From: Bacteroidota bacterium | GTDB lineage: Bacteria; Bacteroidota; Bacteroidia; UKL13-3 | Direction: 5' to 3' | DNA: 64,000 nt | Assembly (NCBI GenBank): GCA_947485745.1 | Contig: CANKQY010000005.1 | Span: 875-64,874 of the forward strand | Shown: in pieces, positions 14,685 to 23,690 of the stretch | How the letters are laid out: every line of letters begins with the position of its first letter | Position numbering within the stretch: the first letter of the stretch is position 1 | Program-made: the position numbers and the translations under genes | The notes under the pieces: generated by a model | Told to the model about the DNA's origin: nothing | Databases searched by the model: none | Seen by the model: the letters and a program-made list of their open reading frames with translations, nothing else

Positions 14685-15701
14685 ATGTTGAAATTAATTA
14701 GCATTTCAGATTACTTAAAATTGTCTGAACCTACTATTTTGCTAGATGCAAGGAGCGAAGGGGAGTTTGAACAAGGCCATATTCCCGGCGCAATTTCTTT
14801 TTCAATTCTAAATAATGAAGAAAGAAAATTGGTGGGTACTTGCTACAAACAACAAGGTCACCAAGCAGCAGTAGTTTTGGGTTATGAGCTGGTAGGACCA
14901 AAATTTAAGCAGTTTGTGACTCATGCTTATCAAAATTTTGTTGGTCAAGAAATATACATCCACTGCTGGCGCGGAGGTTTAAGGAGCCAAATTATGAGTA
15001 ATTTACTTAGCTCGGCTGGATTTAAAGTTCATTTGATACGAGGTGGATATAAAACGTTTAGGCAGGAAGTATTGAACTTTTTGGCCAACGATTTTGAATT
15101 TGAAGTATTAGGTGGATTAACTGGATCCGGGAAAACCTATGTATTGGATGAATTAGAGAATAGGGGAGCTCAAGTACTAAACATCGAAAAATTGGCTAAC
15201 CACAAAGGATCTGCATTTGGATCCTTGGGTCAAAATCCACAACCAACCCAAGAGTATTTTGAAAATTTGTGTTTTGAGGTTTTACGAAAATTCAATTTCG
15301 AGAATCCTATTTGGGTGGAGGATGAAAGCCGATTAATTGGGAAACTGCAAGTTCCAACTCAAATATACCAAGGAATACGAAATAGTTTTGTTTATTTTCT
15401 TGAATATTCTTTTGATGATAGGCTTGAGCACATACTAAAGGATTACGGCTGTTTTGATAAAAACCTTTTAATTGAACGAACCAAACAAATTAAAAAACGA
15501 ATGGGTGATTTAGTGAATAGAACTGCCATTGACGCTCTTGAAATTGGTGATTTAAGAGCTTGGGCAGAAATAGTTTTAAGTCATTACGACAAACAGTATA
15601 GGTATGGGTTCGGCTTACGTAAACCTGAAAGCAGTAAAGACATTACACTTAAAAATGACGAACTAATTAACGAGTTACTAGGTGTAAAAAAAGAAGCATA
15701 A
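14685..15701 (+). CDS. selU: tRNA 2-selenouridine synthase
   Basis: 338 aa. The N-terminal rhodanese domain has the active-site loop HCWRGGLRS, followed by the P-loop GGLTGSGKT. This is the architecture typical of SelU/MnmH. Confidence 0.85.
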   Translation: MLKLISISDYLKLSEPTILLDARSEGEFEQGHIPGAISFSILNNEERKLVGTCYKQQGHQAAVVLGYELVGPKFKQFVTHAYQNFVGQEIYIHCWRGGLRSQIMSNLLSSAGFKVHLIRGGYKTFRQEVLNFLANDFEFEVLGGLTGSGKTYVLDELENRGAQVLNIEKLANHKGSAFGSLGQNPQPTQEYFENLCFEVLRKFNFENPIWVEDESRLIGKLQVPTQIYQGIRNSFVYFLEYSFDDRLEHILKDYGCFDKNLLIERTKQIKKRMGDLVNRTAIDALEIGDLRAWAEIVLSHYDKQYRYGFGLRKPESSKDITLKNDELINELLGVKKEA

Positions 15702-15793: not shown

Positions 15794-15801
15794 TATTTTT
15801 G
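15794..15801 (+). promoter_or_regulatory. Bacteroidota-type -7 promoter box (TAnnTTTG)
   Basis: TATTTTTG lies 24 nt upstream of the ATG at 15826. It overlaps the TTG start proposed by the ORF track (15799), which argues for the ATG as the true start. Confidence 0.4.
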
Positions 15802-15825
15802 CAGAAAATATTTAATTACCACACC

Positions 15826-17031
15826 ATGGCAGGAACAGAATTTTTTGGATCAGAAGAAAAAAAAGAAATCAATGATGTAGTCGAAACAGGCATTTTGTTT
15901 AGATTTAACCACGATGCTCAAAGAAATAATATTTGGAAGGCACGCGAATTTGAATCAGAGGTTGCTAAATTAGTTGGTGCAAAATATGCACATGCAGTAA
16001 CTAGCGGTAGTACTGCTGTTTTATGCGCCCTAGCAGCTGCTGGTATTGGTGCTGGCGATGAAGTGATAGTTCCTCCTTTTACCTATATAGCCTCTGTTGA
16101 AGCAGTTATTTTTGCAGGTGCATTGCCTGTTTTTGCAGAAATAGATGAAACCTTATGCCTGAGTGCTGAGGGTATCAAAAAAGCATTAACCCCTAAAACA
16201 AAAGCCATTCTTTTGGTTCATATGTGCGGTCAAATGGCCCAAATGGACGAGATCATGGCCCTAGTTAAAGAACACAATTTAATATTGGTTGAAGATGCTG
16301 GTCAGGCCATGGCCGCCAGTTACAAAGGTGTATCAACCGGTTTATTTGGGGTAACAGGTTGCTATAGTTTCGATTTCTTTAAAATTGCAACAGCTGGTGA
16401 AGGTGGAGTAATGGTAACAAACAGTGAAGCGGCCTATAAATTGGCAGATTGTTTCTCAGATCATGGTCACGATCATATTGGCAATAACCGTGGAATGGAA
16501 AACCATCCGGTGCTTGGTTTCAATTACCGCATCTCTGAATTACATGCAGCAGTTGGCTTGGCTCAAACACGCAGAGTGCCTATGATTCGCACCTTAAACA
16601 ACCAACACAAGAAAACAATGATGACCGAATTAAGCAAAATACCTGGTGTTAGTTTTGCTACTATTCCTGATCCTAATGGCGATTCTGCCACCTTCTTAAA
16701 TATCCTCTTACCAAACACCGCAGCTGCCATGCGTGCTGTTGATGAGTTTAACAAAAATGGCGTTGCTGGCTTCAACTATTGGTTCACCAATATGTACCAT
16801 TTTATTAATCAATGGAACCACATTAAAGAAGGTAAAGTTGCCGCTAAAACAAATGTTCAATTATTAGGTGCGCCGCAAGATTATATAAACATGGAGTTAC
16901 CAAAAACCCAAGAAACAATAGGTAGGTTAATTTCGTTTGGTATCAAAGCAAGTTGGACAGAAGCAGAGTTGAATGAATTATTAGCTAAAATTAGTAATAG
17001 TATCCAAGCTGCTTTGGTTCAAACCGCTTAA
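15826..17031 (+). CDS. DegT/DnrJ/EryC1/StrS-family PLP-dependent sugar aminotransferase (KdnA-like candidate)
   Basis: It has TSGSTAVLCALAAAGIGAGDEVIVPPFTYIASVEA, the PLP-lysine motif YSFDFFKIATAGEGGVMVTN, and FNYRISELHAAVGLAQ. It is the first gene of the Kdo island. Confidence 0.85.
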   Translation: MAGTEFFGSEEKKEINDVVETGILFRFNHDAQRNNIWKAREFESEVAKLVGAKYAHAVTSGSTAVLCALAAAGIGAGDEVIVPPFTYIASVEAVIFAGALPVFAEIDETLCLSAEGIKKALTPKTKAILLVHMCGQMAQMDEIMALVKEHNLILVEDAGQAMAASYKGVSTGLFGVTGCYSFDFFKIATAGEGGVMVTNSEAAYKLADCFSDHGHDHIGNNRGMENHPVLGFNYRISELHAAVGLAQTRRVPMIRTLNNQHKKTMMTELSKIPGVSFATIPDPNGDSATFLNILLPNTAAAMRAVDEFNKNGVAGFNYWFTNMYHFINQWNHIKEGKVAAKTNVQLLGAPQDYINMELPKTQETIGRLISFGIKASWTEAELNELLAKISNSIQAALVQTA

Positions 17032-17042
17032 AAATTATAATA

Positions 17043-18125
17043 ATGAGTCATAAGAATTTTAAATCAATAGAGAAAACTGTTTTTGGAAGAGGTAGCTTTA
17101 ACCAACTTGCAGAAATTGTTGAACCCCAAAGATCACTTAATAATAAGTACTTTGTTTATATTGTAGACAACTATTTTAAAGGTAAAGAACTTGAATCTAG
17201 GTTGCAGCAAAAGCCCGAAGACACCATTTACTTTATTGATGTAGATCCGCATGAACCAACCACCGAACAAATAGACCAATTGCGCGATGAAATTTTGGCT
17301 CAAAAAGGATTGCCTGCCGGCTTAATTGGTATTGGTGGTGGCAGTATAATGGATATTGCCAAAGCCTTAGCCCTCATGCTTTGTAATGAAGGTCCATCTC
17401 AACAATACCAAGGTTTGAACCTAATAAAAAAGCCAGGTGTGTATCATTTAGGTGTGCCTACAATATCTGGTACTGGCGCAGAATGCAGCATGACCGCCGT
17501 ATTAACTGGTCCTGAGAAAAAGCTGGGTTTAAAATGCGATTGGACCATTTTTGACCAGGTTATTTTAGACTCAGAATTAACCAAAACGGTACCCGTTGAT
17601 AAGTGGTTTTATACAGGCATGGATACATTTATTCATTGCATTGAAAGCAGAGATGGTATTTTAAATAATGCATACAGCATGGCTTATGGTGAGCAATCAT
17701 TGAAGCTTTGTAAAGATATTTACTTAAGTGATAATGCTGGCCAATCTCCAGAAAACGACGATAAATTAATGGTGGCTTCTTTAATGGGCGGCTTGAGCCT
17801 AACCTATTCTGAGGTGGGTGTTTGCCATGCATTAAGTTATGGCTTGAGCAAAATTTTTGGAGAAAAACATTGTTATGCAAATTGCTTAGCCTTTCAACAC
17901 TTAGGCGATTTTTATCCAGAAGGAGTGAAGGAATTTAAAACCATGCTAGCAAAACACAACATTACCTTGCCTACTGGTTTAAGTGCCAATTGGACCGATG
18001 CTGAAATTACTGCAATGGCACATGTAGCCTATAACTTGCCGCATATGTGGAATCATGCCTTGGGTGCAGATTGGAAAGAAAAAATGACCGTAGAACGCAT
18101 AGAAGGATTGTTTAGGAGGTTATAG
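17043..18125 (+). CDS. Group-III (iron-containing) alcohol dehydrogenase family protein (KdnB-like candidate)
   Basis: 360 aa. The glycine motif GIGGGSIMDIAKALA is Fe-ADH type, not the DHQ-synthase GGGVxGD type. Candidate metal-ligand His residues occur in FIHCIESRDG and VCHALSYGL. The gap to the aminotransferase is 11 nt. Confidence 0.8.
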   Translation: MSHKNFKSIEKTVFGRGSFNQLAEIVEPQRSLNNKYFVYIVDNYFKGKELESRLQQKPEDTIYFIDVDPHEPTTEQIDQLRDEILAQKGLPAGLIGIGGGSIMDIAKALALMLCNEGPSQQYQGLNLIKKPGVYHLGVPTISGTGAECSMTAVLTGPEKKLGLKCDWTIFDQVILDSELTKTVPVDKWFYTGMDTFIHCIESRDGILNNAYSMAYGEQSLKLCKDIYLSDNAGQSPENDDKLMVASLMGGLSLTYSEVGVCHALSYGLSKIFGEKHCYANCLAFQHLGDFYPEGVKEFKTMLAKHNITLPTGLSANWTDAEITAMAHVAYNLPHMWNHALGADWKEKMTVERIEGLFRRL

Positions 18126-18147: not shown

Positions 18148-18984
18148 ATGACGAAAATAGTAAAAGTAGGTAACATAGATGCTGGTAGCGATGAGCTATT
18201 CTTGATTTCTGGACCTTGTGTGATAGAAGATGAAGTTATCATGATGAAAACAGCTGAGAAACTAAAAGAGGTTTCAGAAAAGTTAAACATCAAAATGATT
18301 TACAAATCATCTTTCCAAAAAGACAACCGCAGTAGTTTAAAATATTATGATGGTCCGGGTTTGGATAAAGGTGTTAAAATATTGGCCAAAGTAAAAGAGC
18401 AGTTTGGCTTCCCTTTGTTAACAGATATTCATTACCCAGATCAAGCTGCTGCTGCTGGTGAGGTTTGTGACGTATTGCAAATTCCAGCCTACTTGTGTAT
18501 GCAATCTACCTTAATGGTGGCTGCTGCTAAAACAGGCAGGGTTATCAATATCAAACATGGTCAGTTTTTAGCGCCAGAAAACATGAAGCATCCTGTGCAA
18601 AAATGTATTGATTCTGGCAACGACCAAGTAATATTAACCGAAAGAGGATTTACCTTTGGTTACAATGATATGATTGTAGACCCAAGGAGTTTCTTTTTAA
18701 TGGGACAAATAGGTTACCCTGTTGTATTTGATATTACCCATGCTATCAGAAAATATGGTATCCCTAGTGCAGATGCCAAAGGAGGTGCCAGAGAATTTTT
18801 GCCTGTATTAAGTAGGGCAGGGGTTGCTGCTGGTGTGGATGGAGTGTTTATAGAAACTCACCCCGATCCTGCAACCGCCTTGTGCGATGCCGCTTCTCAA
18901 TTGAGTGTTTATGCATTGGAAGAATTTTTAAAGCCATTGATAGAATTGCACAATATTGAGGTAAGCTATCGCTCAAAAGTGTAA
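18148..18984 (+). CDS. kdsA: 3-deoxy-8-phosphooctulonate (Kdo8P) synthase, metal-dependent class, with atypical active-site substitutions
   Basis: 278 aa, alignable by eye along its full length with E. coli and Aquifex KdsA. It has the KSSFQKDNRSS PEP-binding motif. The metal ligands are Cys in SGPCVIE, His in DITHA, Glu in IETHPDP and Asp in LCDAAS. The conserved PAFLCRQTDL motif reads PAYLCMQSTL here. Confidence 0.9.
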   Translation: MTKIVKVGNIDAGSDELFLISGPCVIEDEVIMMKTAEKLKEVSEKLNIKMIYKSSFQKDNRSSLKYYDGPGLDKGVKILAKVKEQFGFPLLTDIHYPDQAAAAGEVCDVLQIPAYLCMQSTLMVAAAKTGRVINIKHGQFLAPENMKHPVQKCIDSGNDQVILTERGFTFGYNDMIVDPRSFFLMGQIGYPVVFDITHAIRKYGIPSADAKGGAREFLPVLSRAGVAAGVDGVFIETHPDPATALCDAASQLSVYALEEFLKPLIELHNIEVSYRSKV

Positions 18985-19024: not shown

Positions 19025-19696
19025 ATGAAAAATAAATTATTCATACTCATTTGCGTTTTTATGTGCTCGCATGTTGCTTACGCACAATACGAATCACCTT
19101 ATAAAAATGAATCTTCGTCAGTTTCATCTTCTGAAAGGCCTAATTTCTACCTAGGCATTGGAACAGGATTAAATTATAAAACAGGTGTTTTGGGTTTATC
19201 TTTGGCATATAGAATAGCACCCAAAAGCTTGGTTGAATTAAATATGGGTTTAGGTGTTTACGGCAGCAAAATTGGCTTAGGTGGGGTATTTAATGTAATT
19301 GAAAAAGGTGCTTGGTGCCCCTCTTTATCTTTTTCTAGGGCATCTGGAGGGTCAGAAGTGCCATTAACAGTGGAGGTTGAAGTGATAGGCTCTAATAATG
19401 CCGCAAGCACCGAAACCAAAATCAACTTAAGCCCAATGTTCACCCTAACACCGGGTGTGCAAAGGCAGTTTATTTCAAGAAAGGGCAACCGTTTTGTTTT
19501 GGAATTTGGTTTCGCTATTCCTTTAAATACAGCCACACAAGAATTTTCGGAGAGTTTTGCAGAGGTTAATGGTGTTCAGGTACCAACTAGCTTTCTAAAA
19601 TTCTCAAGTACGCAAAAAACAGTTTTTAAAATTTTGGATCCTGCAGGATTAAGCCTCGGATTGTGTTATTATTTTGGGTTCAAACCGAAGAACTAA
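19025..19696 (+). CDS. Putative small outer-membrane beta-barrel protein (hypothetical)
   Basis: 223 aa with signal peptide MKNKLFILICVFMCSHVAYAQ. Gly-rich amphipathic strands include YLGIGTGLNY, LGLSLAY and GLSLGLCYYFGF. It is embedded within the Kdo island. Confidence 0.5.
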   Translation: MKNKLFILICVFMCSHVAYAQYESPYKNESSSVSSSERPNFYLGIGTGLNYKTGVLGLSLAYRIAPKSLVELNMGLGVYGSKIGLGGVFNVIEKGAWCPSLSFSRASGGSEVPLTVEVEVIGSNNAASTETKINLSPMFTLTPGVQRQFISRKGNRFVLEFGFAIPLNTATQEFSESFAEVNGVQVPTSFLKFSSTQKTVFKILDPAGLSLGLCYYFGFKPKN

Positions 19697-19778: not shown

Positions 19779-20789
19779 ATGGAATTATACTTAGATTCAG
19801 CCAACTTAAAAGAAATTGAAGAAGCCTTTAAATTAGGGTTCTTAAACGGTTTAACTACCACTCCAACCTTCATGCAGCGCGAAGGCATTACAGATGTGGA
19901 TGCCATGATTGTGAAACTATCCAAAATTGTACCTGTGCTTCAAATTGAGGCTTTAGGAGATACTGCTGAAGATGTTTTGGCCGAGGCTAAAAGACAATTG
20001 GCTCTGGGACTAGATCCTAAGAAAACTGTATTTAAAATTCCAGTTTCATTAGAAGGCGTTCGTGCTTGTAAAATGTTGCGAAACGAAGGTTTATTGGTAA
20101 ATGTACACTTGGTGTATACCTTGCAACAAGCTTATATGGCTATGCATGCAGGTGCAACTTATGTTTGCCCTCTGGTGGGTCGCTTGCAAGATCAAGGTCA
20201 TGATGCCCTTGATTTAGTTGCCCAAATTGTAGATGCAGTAGATCATTATGGTTATGATACCAAAGTAATGTTTTCTTCAGTTCGCACCATGGAACATATC
20301 AGAAACGCCATAAATTTAGGTGTTCATACCATTACCGTTCCATTGAAGATCATGAAGCAATTAACCGAAAATCATTTTACAACGGTAGGTACTGATCAGT
20401 TTATTCATGATACCCGTTTAATGACAGTTCGCGTAAAAGAAGCATTAAACGGTGTGAACCCAATCATTGCTGCCAACACAAATTTAGCTGATGCCATTGT
20501 AAAAATGACTGAGTATGGATTTGGTGCCATTACTGTGGTAAATGCAGATGGTAGCTTAAAAGGTGTATTTACAGACGGTGATTTGCGCAGAAAAATACAA
20601 TCGGAAGGCAGAGATGTATTGAGTAAAAACATTGGCGATTTTGAATATGGTAAAGCAATTTCAATCGAAGGCTCTGCGCTTTTAAATGAAGCAGCCGGCA
20701 TATTTAAATCAACCAAAGTAGATACCATTTTGGTTACTGAAAATGGTAAACCATTGGGCATGTTAGATATTCAAGATTTAGAGGGATAA
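19779..20789 (+). CDS. Fusion protein: transaldolase/fructose-6-phosphate-aldolase-type TIM barrel plus a KdsD-type CBS domain pair
   Basis: Residues 1 to about 215 carry MELYLDSANLKEIEE, GLTTTPTF, the Schiff-base Lys motif TVFKIPVSLEGVRACKML, and GATYVCPLVGRL. Residues from about 220 to 336 carry GVFTDGDLRRKIQ and GKPLGMLDIQDL, which closely resemble the C-terminal CBS pair of KdsD/KpsF (GIFTDGDLRRVF in E. coli KdsD). No SIS domain is present. Confidence 0.75.
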   Translation: MELYLDSANLKEIEEAFKLGFLNGLTTTPTFMQREGITDVDAMIVKLSKIVPVLQIEALGDTAEDVLAEAKRQLALGLDPKKTVFKIPVSLEGVRACKMLRNEGLLVNVHLVYTLQQAYMAMHAGATYVCPLVGRLQDQGHDALDLVAQIVDAVDHYGYDTKVMFSSVRTMEHIRNAINLGVHTITVPLKIMKQLTENHFTTVGTDQFIHDTRLMTVRVKEALNGVNPIIAANTNLADAIVKMTEYGFGAITVVNADGSLKGVFTDGDLRRKIQSEGRDVLSKNIGDFEYGKAISIEGSALLNEAAGIFKSTKVDTILVTENGKPLGMLDIQDLEG

Positions 20790-20815
20790 TTGAATAATCA
20801 TATCTATTCATAATG

Positions 20816-20847
20816 AAAAGACCGCTGCAATTAGCGGTCTTTTTTTT
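20816..20847 (+). terminator. Rho-independent terminator after the aldolase-CBS gene
   Basis: The stem GACCGCT (20820-20826) pairs with AGCGGTC (20833-20839), with loop GCAATT. An 8-nt T-run (20840-20847) follows, and preceding A residues extend the stem. Confidence 0.8.
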
Positions 20848-21611: not shown

Positions 21612-23690
21612 TTAACTATATCTTTTTAAATAATCCAAAGTTACTTGCTGCGAACTTTGTCCGGTGCCATCAGTGTTTTGATGGATATAATGGATGTCGT
21701 TGATGCCATCAATTTTTCTGGCTTTCAATTGATCATTCCATTGTATATCAAAAATATCAGATACTATCTTTTGATTGTCTTTGGCATAAACAGGGAAGCC
21801 AACTTCTATCCTGCTCATCAAATTTCTAGTCATCCAATCTGCAGAAGCTAAATATATTTTTTCATCGCCACCATTGCAAAACATGTATAGTCTGGCATGC
21901 TCCAAAAACCTGTCAATGATACTTATAATCTCTATGTTTTCACTGCTATTTGGCACACCAGGAACCAAACAACAAATACCTCTAATGATCAATTGAATTT
22001 TTACACCAGCATTACTTGCTTCGTATAGCTTTTTTATTATATCGGTATCTACCAATGAATTCATTTTAGCTTTGATCCAAGCTGGTTTTCCTGCAAGGGC
22101 ATTTGCCTTTTCTTGGTCTATCATCTGCAAGAATTGCTTTTTCATAAATTCTGGCGCCACCAATAAATGCTTGAACCCACCTCTCCTAAGGTTCACAAAA
22201 AGGATATCCGTTAAGGCGTCAATTTCTTCGGTTAACCTAATATCCTTGGTAAACAAGCCAAAGTCGCTATAAATCCTTGCGGTTACTCCATTATAATTTC
22301 CTGTAGCTAAATGGGCGTACTTTACAATTTTGTTGTTTTCCTTGCGGTAAATTAAGCAGATTTTACAATGTACCTTCTGACCAGGTTTGCCAAAATGAAC
22401 TTGTGCTCCTGCCTCCTGCAGTTGGTTAGTCCAAAAGATATTTGATTCTTCATCAAACCTCGCCTGAAGCTCCATCAATACAATAACCTTCTTGCCATTC
22501 TTAACCGCATTAATAAGCGCATTTACCACATTGCTGTGTTTTGCTACTCTATACAGTGTAATTAAAATAGTAGTTACTTGTGGGTCGATTGCCGCTTCTC
22601 TAATAAAGCGAATCAGGTAATCAAAACTTTGGTAAGGTTGATGAAATAAGATATCTTTTTTAGTGATGGCATCAAACATAATTTTTTCTTGCTCCAGTTC
22701 CTTAATAGGTATTTGTAACAATGGCGCAAAATAATGTTCTTTCTCACCAATATTGGGAAAGTCCATGAAGTCCTTAAAATTATGGTACCTTCCACCTGGA
22801 ATCAAATTCACATTCCTTAGATCTAATTTTCTGATCAAAAACTCCAGCATGTCTTTTGGCATGCTTTCATCATAAACAAATCGGGTAGGTAGTCCTTTAG
22901 ATCTTTGCTTCAAGCTTTTTTGAATTTTATCTAATAAGTTTATTGAATAGTCATTTTCATCTTTGCTAATTTCAAATTCAGCGTCTCGTGTTATTTTGAT
23001 GATATATGATTCGTAATTTTGGTAATCGAAAATTGAAAATATGCGTGTTAAATTGAGGCGTATAATGTTTTCAAGTAAAATAATATGCTGCTTACTTTCA
23101 AATTCGGGCAGTGTGAAAAATCTTTTAATAATACCCGTTGGTATTTCAATAATAGCATGCTTGGGTTCCATTCCACTTAAGCTATTTTTCATCCTTACAG
23201 CCAAATAAATACTCCTATCACGCAGGTGTGGAATTTGCTTCAGGTTGTCTAAAATTATTGGGAACAGGTTATTTAAAATATTTAGCTTGAAATAATTTTG
23301 AATAATCTTGGCTTCGTTCTCATTAACCAAGGTTTCATCAATTAAAAAAATGTTATTTCTATTTAGCTCAGGAATAATTTGTTGTTCGTAAATCTCAGTA
23401 AATTTGTCTTGCATAACCATTACTGTTCGCTGTATTTCCGACAAAATTTCATCTGGTGAAGATTGGTACTCAGAAATAGGCTTTTTGCCATTTACTTTTT
23501 GTAAGCGTCTGATTTGAGCCACTCTAACCCTAAAAAACTCATCTAAATTAGAAGAAAAAATAGCCATGAATTTAATCCTTTCCATTAATGGATTATTTGC
23601 ATTTTCTACCTCCTGCAAAACGCGCTCATTAAAGTGTAACCAGCTGATTTCTCTATCTTTAAATAAATGTCCTTTTCTTTCTTTAATCAT
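21612..23690 (-). CDS. ppk1: Polyphosphate kinase 1
   Basis: 692 aa. The N-terminus reads RKGHLFKDREISWLHFNERVLQEVENANNPLMERIKFMAIFSSNLDEFFRVRVAQ. The PLD-like C-terminal domains include HCKICLIYRKE and FLEHARLYMF. Confidence 0.95.
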   Translation of the reverse strand: MIKERKGHLFKDREISWLHFNERVLQEVENANNPLMERIKFMAIFSSNLDEFFRVRVAQIRRLQKVNGKKPISEYQSSPDEILSEIQRTVMVMQDKFTEIYEQQIIPELNRNNIFLIDETLVNENEAKIIQNYFKLNILNNLFPIILDNLKQIPHLRDRSIYLAVRMKNSLSGMEPKHAIIEIPTGIIKRFFTLPEFESKQHIILLENIIRLNLTRIFSIFDYQNYESYIIKITRDAEFEISKDENDYSINLLDKIQKSLKQRSKGLPTRFVYDESMPKDMLEFLIRKLDLRNVNLIPGGRYHNFKDFMDFPNIGEKEHYFAPLLQIPIKELEQEKIMFDAITKKDILFHQPYQSFDYLIRFIREAAIDPQVTTILITLYRVAKHSNVVNALINAVKNGKKVIVLMELQARFDEESNIFWTNQLQEAGAQVHFGKPGQKVHCKICLIYRKENNKIVKYAHLATGNYNGVTARIYSDFGLFTKDIRLTEEIDALTDILFVNLRRGGFKHLLVAPEFMKKQFLQMIDQEKANALAGKPAWIKAKMNSLVDTDIIKKLYEASNAGVKIQLIIRGICCLVPGVPNSSENIEIISIIDRFLEHARLYMFCNGGDEKIYLASADWMTRNLMSRIEVGFPVYAKDNQKIVSDIFDIQWNDQLKARKIDGINDIHYIHQNTDGTGQSSQQVTLDYLKRYS

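Follow-up and report, generated by a model that had tools for sequence, protein, structure and literature searches.

A kdsA-linked aldolase barrel fused to a KdsD-type CBS pair in Bacteroidota: a candidate source of arabinose 5-phosphate for Kdo synthesis

What does an aldolase-type barrel do in an operon for the outer-membrane sugar 3-deoxy-D-manno-octulosonate (Kdo), joined to the regulatory domains of the isomerase that would be expected there? Kdo is present in the lipopolysaccharide (LPS) of nearly all Gram-negative bacteria, and its four-step pathway, composed of KdsD, KdsA, KdsC and KdsB, is treated as universal and is being pursued as a target for antibiotics. The question is raised by a gene in a stretch of 64,000 nucleotides from a Bacteroidota bacterium (GenBank assembly GCA_947485745.1, contig CANKQY010000005.1, positions 875 to 64,874 of the forward strand), hereafter the window. 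The gene, which we call TAL-CBS, codes for a barrel resembling transaldolase (Tal) and fructose-6-phosphate aldolase (FSA), followed by a pair of CBS domains of the kind that ends KdsD and KpsF. Because this gene and its relatives lie beside kdsA in many phyla, with no normal isomerase nearby, the fusion is probably an undescribed way of feeding the Kdo pathway. Its product is predicted from sequence to be a catalytically competent enzyme dedicated to Kdo. In the reading that we favour, and to which we give an even chance of being correct, TAL-CBS supplies D-arabinose 5-phosphate (A5P) to the Kdo-8-phosphate synthase KdsA in the slot of KdsD/KpsF, using chemistry of the class-I aldolase type and subject to allosteric control like that of KdsD.

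An earlier reading of the locus, made from the letters alone (the sequence-only reading), had described an aldolase barrel taking the place of the SIS domain in front of a KdsD-type CBS pair. The open reading frame at 19779-20789 and every motif quoted in that reading are indeed present, and the proposed architecture is upheld by matches in Pfam, NCBIfam and PDB. In Pfam, residues 3-201 are assigned to TAL_FSA with an E-value of 2.4e-35, and residues 229-334 to a pair of CBS motifs with an E-value of 7e-14. The best NCBIfam model for the barrel, FSA/TalC TIGR00875, yields 165 bits, under its cut-off of 246 bits, and the protein scores below the cut-off of every NCBIfam Tal or FSA model, the Tal models being missed by far. 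Among solved structures, the barrel is matched best by the type-3B transaldolases 3r8r (134 bits), 1vpx, 1wx0 and 3s0c, with FSA at about 66 bits. The models kpsF TIGR00393 (63 bits, profile positions 153-267 of 268) and KdsD PRK10892 (profile positions 205-322 of 328) are matched at their C-termini by residues 215-334, and one relative of the fusion, P0459, reaches 107 bits in its KdsD match. The three top PDB matches of this half are the CBS pairs of A5P isomerases, namely 4o9k (E 1e-15), 3fna and 3k2v, followed in fourth place by a generic CBS protein (E 6e-8); by these alignments, the nearest kin of the CBS pair are the CBS pairs of the arabinose-5-phosphate isomerases KdsD and KpsF. Both ribose-phosphate-binding strands, GVFTDGD and GMLDIQD, are present, with G262, T265, G267, D268, R271 and G327 invariant or nearly so. 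Neither Pfam nor NCBIfam detected a SIS domain in the protein, and an E. coli KdsD probe matched residues 217-322 only.

Structure prediction, which the sequence-only reading had proposed as a check, gave a confident AlphaFold2 model built on 64 diverse relatives, with a predicted local distance difference test score (pLDDT) of 93.9 and a predicted template-modelling score of 0.77. In a Foldseek comparison, its barrel superposes on the type-3B transaldolases 1vpx, 3r8r and 3s0c with target-based template-modelling scores of 0.90-0.93 and a root-mean-square deviation of about 1.6 Å, and the same search of the full model returned no PDB entry spanning both the barrel and the CBS pair. A single-sequence model of the CBS half on its own was discarded, as it had a pLDDT of 42 and its Foldseek matches were meaningless. 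The exact TAL-CBS protein was also found on a 91.5-kb ENA metagenome contig (ERZ27280226, k141_3633751).

The active site sets the protein apart from both parent classes, as had been supposed by eye. In a MAFFT alignment of 499 family sequences and two solved transaldolases, numbered after the window protein, we compared the eleven sites that line the active site of Tal and FSA (D6, N28, E57, K86, N108, T110, S130, F132, R135, S167 and R169), with roles as known for TalB, TacTal and FSA. Canonical Tal enzymes read D-N-E-K-N-T-S-F-R-S-R at these sites, whereas the window protein reads D-T-E-K-N-H-C-L-R-S-R. The pattern D(T/N)EKNHCLRSR is found in 203 + 74 CBS-fused and 23 + 6 CBS-less sequences, and the canonical signature goes together with a CBS pair in a single sequence. 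Among the sequences of this type, which we designate H-C-L, His110, Cys130 and Leu132 always occur together, and a crude neighbour-joining tree places these sequences apart from canonical Tal and FSA, with fused and unfused forms mixed among them. The sequence-only reading had already called Glu57, at the site where Tal has Glu and FSA has Gln, and Leu132, at the Phe/Tyr site; both calls were borne out by the MAFFT alignment and by a HMMER alignment to 3r8r, while three further substitutions (T110H, S130C and N28T) had escaped it. From the catalytic set of transaldolase (EC 2.2.1.2), namely E60, T110, S130 and F132 in TacTal, Glu57 is kept, and Thr, Ser and Phe are replaced by His110, Cys130 and Leu132. 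In place of the FSA pair, Gln59 and Tyr131 in E. coli numbering, the protein has Glu57 and Leu132. The view that it fits neither transaldolase nor FSA thus stands, with Glu57 Tal-like, the Thr/Ser/Phe set replaced and all family scores below cut-off.

Across a further alignment of 64 diverse members, with identity down to 28%, D6, E57, K86, H110, C130, L132, R135, S166, S167 and R169 are all invariant, which points to an intact predicted Schiff-base apparatus and phosphate/acceptor subsite beside a predicted donor-side pocket that has been rebuilt in one fixed way. K86, the predicted Schiff-base lysine on strand beta-4, and D6, the predicted general base, align to the catalytic residues of 3r8r and 1vpx. 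These alignments mark H-C-L as a distinct subfamily, not named before, among the class-I aldolase barrels of the transaldolase/FSA type. Linkage to kdsA extends to stand-alone barrels that bear this His/Cys/Leu signature, and the CBS fusion is a frequent add-on, not the defining element. The earlier interpretation, which centred on the fusion, is supported in part and has been sharpened: the barrel and its Kdo context remain, and the H-C-L barrel replaces the fusion as the feature that defines the family.

The link to Kdo synthesis, previously argued from a single operon, was strengthened by comparison of 156 loci (about 1.8 Mb), including 81 of the Chitinophagales type, 40 with fusions from a more distant clade (30-35% identity), 31 with TAL-only or truncated genes, and four from a clade with a degenerate barrel, described below as the dead-barrel clade. 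A kdsA gene lies within 3 kb in 39 of 76 Chitinophagales-type loci (adjacent in 17 of 76) and in 29 of 30 distant-clade loci (adjacent in 25 of 30), and a kdsA-family gene lies within this distance in 26 of 28 TAL-only or truncated loci (adjacent in 14 of 28); in the dead-barrel loci, it was found neither nearby nor adjacent (0/4 for both). A KdsC-like gene of the HAD superfamily directly follows in 50 of 75 Chitinophagales-type loci, as opposed to 0/25, 0/17 and 0/4 in the other three groups, and kdsB was counted in 24, 12, 4 and 0 loci, respectively. In the 24 Chitinophagales-type cases, kdsB (319 bits) comes after the HAD gene, and waaA is located upstream in ten loci of this type; the gene order kdsA-fusion-HAD is common to Thermonema (L087) and an 865-kb soil contig. 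The adjacent synthases of the distant clade score 314, 285 and 351 bits against an equivalog cut-off of 242 for Kdo-8-phosphate synthase, and one neighbour in this clade is a bona fide KdsB. One locus (L163) contains KdsC (167 bits, cut-off 107), a KpsC/KpsS-family transferase, KdsB (316 versus 193), a methyltransferase, TAL-CBS and KdsA (359 versus 242), and is a cassette for cytidine monophosphate (CMP)-Kdo that is complete apart from the isomerase; the fusion occupies in it the slot of kpsF in E. coli capsule clusters. Such adjacency to kdsA across phyla cannot be coincidence. The E. coli KdsD probe, which was validated by its near-identity to 2xhz and 3fna and also detects the Bacteroides SIS-only enzyme 3etn, revealed no KdsD-type SIS domain in the window or in the 156 loci, none being counted in any of the four groups, and its only matches there were to the CBS half of the fusion itself.

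The spread of the domain architecture, also proposed for checking in the sequence-only reading, turned out to be wide. In a scan of one genome per GTDB species, with a profile from the TTTPTF subgroup, at least 573 species genomes contain a relative of the fusion. The best 80 of these at least 573 genomes are of the Chitinophagales type and include Flavipsychrobacter, Ferruginibacter and the complete genome CP075895 of Chitinophagaceae LGM1; further carriers are Thermonema, Raineya, Cyclobacteriaceae and "bacterium 336/3", and marine and sediment samples are the source of the clades at greater distance, in bins labelled Chloroflexota, Helarchaeota and Alphaproteobacteria. Genomes with an intact H-C-L gene include GCA_000426825 (Thermonema) and GCA_001281695 ("bacterium 336/3"). 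Close relatives, at 86-99% identity, are abundant in Bacteroidota bins. With metagenomes included, the family amounts to thousands of proteins, and clustering at 50% yields about 17 full-length fusion clusters. Relatives are currently named "transaldolase family protein", "CBS domain-containing protein" or "TalC/MipB", and literature searches found neither a published description of the fusion nor reports on Bacteroidota without kdsD; a cyanophage paper in which A5P, FSA and Kdo are all named has no bearing on it.

How could such a barrel make A5P? TAL-CBS would provide the substrate of Kdo-8-phosphate synthase by covalent Schiff-base catalysis, with C1 of the aldose placed where C2 of fructose 6-phosphate sits in transaldolase. 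In the simplest version, a glycolaldehyde-level two-carbon donor would be joined to glyceraldehyde 3-phosphate (GAP) by aldol addition, a route that is chemically plausible. His110 would assume the acid/base role held by Tyr in FSA, and Cys130 and Leu132 would shut off the space in which the donor's C1 hydroxymethyl is normally lodged. These substitutions fit a substrate with an aldehyde C1 carbonyl and no adjacent hydroxymethyl, that is, A5P or a glycolaldehyde donor. The CBS pair would impose the same allosteric control as in KdsD, presumably via a pathway nucleotide-sugar such as CMP-Kdo.

We favour aldol-type formation of A5P because of this fit of the donor pocket, the precedent of FSA, the A5P adduct reported for a transaldolase, and the donor preference of FSA. 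Position 129 of FSA, equivalent to Ser176 of TalB, governs the choice of donor, and a non-hydroxyl residue at the Cys130-equivalent site of FSA favours donors without that hydroxyl. To our knowledge, FSA is the only family member that makes A5P from glycolaldehyde and GAP. In 2014, Light and Anderson reportedly observed A5P covalently bound to the lysine of a transaldolase (PDB 3upb), an entry which is among the structures matched by the TAL-CBS barrel. Two papers on engineered pathways describe FSA converting glycolaldehyde and GAP into A5P (PMC9947464, PMC13550131). For the family as a whole, we tentatively suggest, at somewhat less than even probability, that the H-C-L branch is the natural A5P source for Kdo in much of Bacteroidota and in several marine and other lineages, where a Schiff-base aldolase-type enzyme, with a reaction as yet assigned to no natural pathway, would have displaced SIS-type KdsD/KpsF, and that the KdsD CBS pair was captured in many lineages, keeping feedback control.

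Several observations weigh against supply of A5P by TAL-CBS in this manner. Within 3 kb, kdsA is missing from about half of the loci of the Chitinophagales type, and "bacterium 336/3" carries an intact fusion with no Kdo neighbour at all. The absence of SIS domains, whether KdsD-like or of the SIS-only Bacteroides type, covers about 1.8 Mb of locus flanks and has little weight, since kdsD is often unlinked to kdsA; non-orthologous replacement of KdsD is, with this scope of the search, not established. Only one SIS domain turned up in the vicinity of a family member; it is located 4.3 kb downstream of the fusion, in a Chloroflexota-labelled cluster (L088:13300-13854, plus strand), and belongs to a 184-aa GmhA-like protein (122 bits to gmhA, below cut-off) which scores as a sedoheptulose-7-phosphate isomerase, not as KdsD. 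The clusters show no obvious source of glycolaldehyde, which in free form is not known as a usual central metabolite. The roles given to His110, Cys130 and Leu132 are predictions made by alignment with enzymes of known structure. Finally, CMP-Kdo is proposed as the CBS ligand after PDB entry 4o9k, on which no paper was found. The L088 cluster also contains radical-SAM/B12-binding, SPASM and NeuB-family genes between and around the fusion and the SIS gene.

The glycolaldehyde problem would disappear if TAL-CBS delivered A5P to KdsA by other chemistry, from ribulose 5-phosphate or ribose 5-phosphate, both of which are abundant pentose-phosphate intermediates. Ribulose 5-phosphate could be isomerised via an enediol, as in triose-phosphate isomerase, by Glu57, His110 and Lys86, or ribose 5-phosphate could be epimerised at C2 via a C1 Schiff base, either by deprotonation and reprotonation of C2 or by retro-aldol cleavage followed by re-addition, without any need for free glycolaldehyde. 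The genomic evidence is the same for this scheme as for aldol addition, the new His lies beside the retained Glu and Lys, and the reported covalent binding of A5P to the transaldolase lysine would suit it as well. However, we know of no isomerase or epimerase precedent in the TAL/FSA family; the full Schiff-base set, including Asp6, is invariant, and would be superfluous for a non-covalent isomerase; and an imine at C1 of an aldose may run into a dead-end Amadori rearrangement. We consider such an isomerase or epimerase unlikely.

The restriction of the SIS search to flanks leaves room for another arrangement, in which TAL-CBS is an addition and not a replacement: an accessory, Kdo-regulated transaldolase or aldolase acting beside a SIS-type isomerase encoded elsewhere, and either tuning the pentose-phosphate pool (ribulose 5-phosphate, GAP) or recycling A5P in response to the demand for CMP-Kdo. 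Bona fide type-3B transaldolases are the nearest relatives of the barrel, Kdo genes do not adjoin some of the intact members, and duplication of pathway steps would have a parallel in E. coli capsule clusters, which duplicate them with kpsF and kpsU. On the other side, replacement of the Thr/Ser/Phe triad in every member, together with the sub-cut-off scores, makes ordinary transaldolase activity doubtful, and contigs labelled as belonging to groups without LPS (Chloroflexota, Helarchaeota) contain kdsA, kdsB and TAL-CBS with no KdsD-type isomerase, a set that looks self-sufficient. We hold an accessory role of this kind to be improbable. An ordinary transaldolase with an energy-sensing CBS pair was rejected, since the H-C-L triad is invariant and the genes are linked to kdsA.

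The stand-alone H-C-L barrels provide a different setting. They are 211-222 aa long and occur on marine metagenome contigs (L136, L139, L140 and others), where some 4 kb surrounding the TAL gene also contain two genes of the KdsA family, two cytidylyltransferases, S-adenosylmethionine-dependent methyltransferases and a GT29-like sialyltransferase, and a D-2-hydroxyacid dehydrogenase gene abuts or overlaps the TAL stop codon. These ulosonic-acid glycan clusters resemble a biosynthetic route to a modified sugar acid akin to Kdo. Such company, along with the probable modification of Kdo through KdnA/KdnB in the operon of the window, would be in line with a different substrate in ulosonic-acid synthesis, either an aldose phosphate other than A5P, destined for a KdsA-family synthase, or Kdo-8-phosphate or Kdo itself, converted by reversible aldol reaction or epimerisation into a modified Kdo-like sugar. 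However, the neighbouring synthases score above the equivalog cut-off for Kdo-8-phosphate synthase, the Chitinophagales operon carries the apparent housekeeping LPS genes kdsA, kdsB and waaA, for which A5P is required, and the KdnA/KdnB pair occurs in about a third of the loci only, so we regard a substrate other than A5P as distinctly improbable.

A natural control is provided by one clade of Bacteroidota, in which Lys86 (changed to Arg or Ser), Asp6, His110 and Arg135 are lost in varied combinations, with GVFTDGDLRR and GMLDIQDL kept. Four members were examined (L082-L085, coding for P0319, P0288, P0272 and P0282), one of them on a 4.2-Mb contig, and no Kdo gene was found near the fusion in any of the four loci. 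The genes in this context are Bax1-I, a peptidyl-prolyl isomerase, GSDH, DUF2911, a phosphodiesterase (PF01663) and peptidase M61, then the fusion, followed on the opposite strand by a gene for a protein of 930-1330 aa. Mean pairwise identity in the kdsA-linked clades is higher for the barrel than for the CBS pair (0.69 and 0.46 in the Bacteroidota type, 0.55 and 0.39 in the distant clade), and the reverse holds in the dead-barrel clade (0.35 and 0.57); barrel catalysis therefore appears to be under selection in the kdsA-linked genes, with selection eased in the dead-barrel clade, in which the fusion has the look of a pseudoenzyme kept for the sake of its CBS pair. That a whole clade can persist with its CBS motifs and without barrel catalysis is what would be expected of a non-catalytic sensor or scaffold, with a functional CBS pair and a barrel for oligomerisation, but this, as well as a housekeeping transaldolase in a coincidental operon position, is highly improbable given the invariant catalytic residues in the window protein and all kdsA-linked clades, the better conservation of the barrel in those clades, the kdsA linkage of CBS-less barrels, and the adjacency to kdsA across phyla. 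For the window protein, a pure regulator was rejected on the ground that, in clades linked to kdsA, the barrel is better conserved than the other half.

In the window, TAL-CBS is part of an operon (Table 1), the gaps between kdnA, kdnB, kdsA, orf223 and TAL-CBS being 11, 22, 40 and 82 nt. The placement of the gene between kdsA and a kdsC-like gene in the sequence-only reading holds in outline, with all three on the plus strand, but a 223-aa open reading frame separates kdsA from the fusion, and the KdsC match of the downstream gene is weak and below cut-off. That gene is probably a Kdo-8-phosphate phosphatase. The HAD genes that follow the fusion most regularly in Bacteroidota (in the window, L087:11029-11760 and L091:9043-9774) code for proteins of 233-243 aa, score 40-50 bits versus a KdsC cut-off of 208, and have N- and C-terminal extensions in comparison with canonical KdsC of about 185 aa; they form a diverged subfamily of phosphatases whose occurrence goes along with that of the fusion. 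A strong terminator-like hairpin, which separates the stop codon of TAL-CBS from the KdsC-like gene, may mean that the phosphatase gene is transcribed separately in the window organism. A sigma-70 promoter scan of the window gave 24 sites versus 21 expected, with a consensus that does not cover Bacteroidota promoters.

The two genes upstream of kdsA, which the sequence-only reading had left out, are orthologues of KdnA and KdnB. These enzymes convert Kdo to 8-amino-Kdo (Kdo8N), known from Shewanella LPS, and the window organism probably makes this sugar. The pair is found beside kdsA in about 27-31 of the 81 related Chitinophagales-type loci, which suggests that Kdo8N is common in this Bacteroidota lineage. 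The product of orf223 is beta-rich, with an aromatic-rich C-terminus, and may be an outer-membrane protein; an open reading frame in the same position is seen in 13 related loci, mostly at 36-43% identity. The flanking genes for MnmH and Ppk1 are ordinary and are syntenic in the closest relatives only (8-9 loci).

Table 1. Coordinates of TAL-CBS, its predicted parts and neighbouring features in the window
Feature	Position	Strand	Basis or remark
tRNA 2-selenouridine synthase MnmH	14685-15701	+	335 bits
kdnA orthologue (8-amino-Kdo transaminase, DegT-type)	15799-17031	+	PDB 5k8b 450 bits, E 5e-134; next match 163 bits
kdnB orthologue (Kdo 8-oxidase, iron-containing alcohol dehydrogenase family)	17043-18125	+	PDB 5k8c 414 bits, E 7e-123, full length
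kdsA, Kdo-8-phosphate synthase	18148-18984	+	NF003543 347 bits (cut-off 242); TIGR01362 333 (314)
orf223, 223 aa, signal-peptide-like N-terminus	19025-19696	+	no Pfam/NCBIfam match
TAL-CBS fusion gene	19779-20789	+	ATG start, 336 aa plus stop; Pfam TAL_FSA + CBS
Type-3B transaldolase/FSA-like (beta/alpha)8 barrel including C-terminal helix, residues 1-214, H-C-L subfamily	19779-20420	+	match to 3r8r, 1vpx; Foldseek
Lys86 codon, predicted Schiff-base lysine (VFKIPVS)	20034-20036	+	aligned to catalytic Lys of 3r8r/1vpx
His110 codon, in place of canonical catalytic Thr (NVTL to NVHL)	20106-20108	+	alignment
Cys130-Pro-Leu132, in place of Ser-Pro-Phe (Tal) or Ala-Pro-Tyr (FSA)	20166-20174	+	alignment
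Linker helix and KdsD/KpsF-type CBS pair, residues 215-336, motifs GVFTDGDLRR, GMLDIQDL	20421-20786	+	NCBIfam, PDB matches
Terminator-like hairpin, 13-bp stem and T-run	20815-20844	+	consensus match only
KdsC-like HAD-superfamily gene, 233 aa	20904-21605	+	weak KdsC match, 50 bits versus cut-off 208
Polyphosphate kinase Ppk1	21612-23690	-	755 bits

If TAL-CBS is indeed a source of A5P, the inference of LPS capacity from genomes would change, as many Bacteroidota and marine bins would otherwise be scored as "kdsD missing", and the fusion would otherwise be mis-annotated as transaldolase in reconstructions of the pentose-phosphate pathway. It would also represent a new natural reaction for class-I aldolases, of relevance to biocatalysis and to glycolaldehyde-assimilation pathways that now use promiscuous FSA, and a clean case of domain-level non-orthologous displacement with the regulatory module retained. 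What is new here is the kdsA-linked H-C-L branch of the TAL/FSA family, with a substantial chance, if short of an even one, that it performs a new first step of Kdo synthesis.

Comparison with known systems shows that the barrel is the same as that of the decameric type-3B transaldolases from B. subtilis (3r8r), T. maritima (TM0295, 1vpx) and T. acidophilum (3s0c), at 32-36% identity, and that TAL-CBS resembles them in its Schiff-base Lys, Asp6, Tal-type Glu57 and Asn108, in a phosphate site of Arg135, Ser167 and Arg169, and in its C-terminal helix. Unlike these enzymes, it has His in place of Thr, Cys in place of Ser, Leu in place of the Phe "shield" and, in the clade of the window, Thr in place of Asn28, as well as a C-terminal CBS pair, and it resides in Kdo operons and not among pentose-phosphate genes. 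E. coli FSA (1l6w) belongs to the same fold class and, like TAL-CBS, has a non-hydroxyl residue at the Cys130 site, in its case Ala129, but it differs in Gln59 and Tyr131, has no CBS pair and no linkage to Kdo, and is a weaker match (66 versus 134 bits for Tal). The Shewanella Kdo8N module KdnA/KdnB (5k8b, 5k8c) has its orthologues upstream of kdsA in the window, a likeness that concerns the neighbours and not the fusion; because the pair is confined to about a third of the related loci, it is not required for TAL-CBS function. With KdsD, KpsF and GutQ, in turn, TAL-CBS has in common a C-terminal linker and CBS pair of the same lineage and the same operon slot beside kdsA, kdsC, kdsB and KpsS-like genes. 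In contrast to these isomerases, however, it lacks a SIS domain and has a catalytic domain of unrelated fold, so that any A5P formation by TAL-CBS would need chemistry other than that of KdsD.

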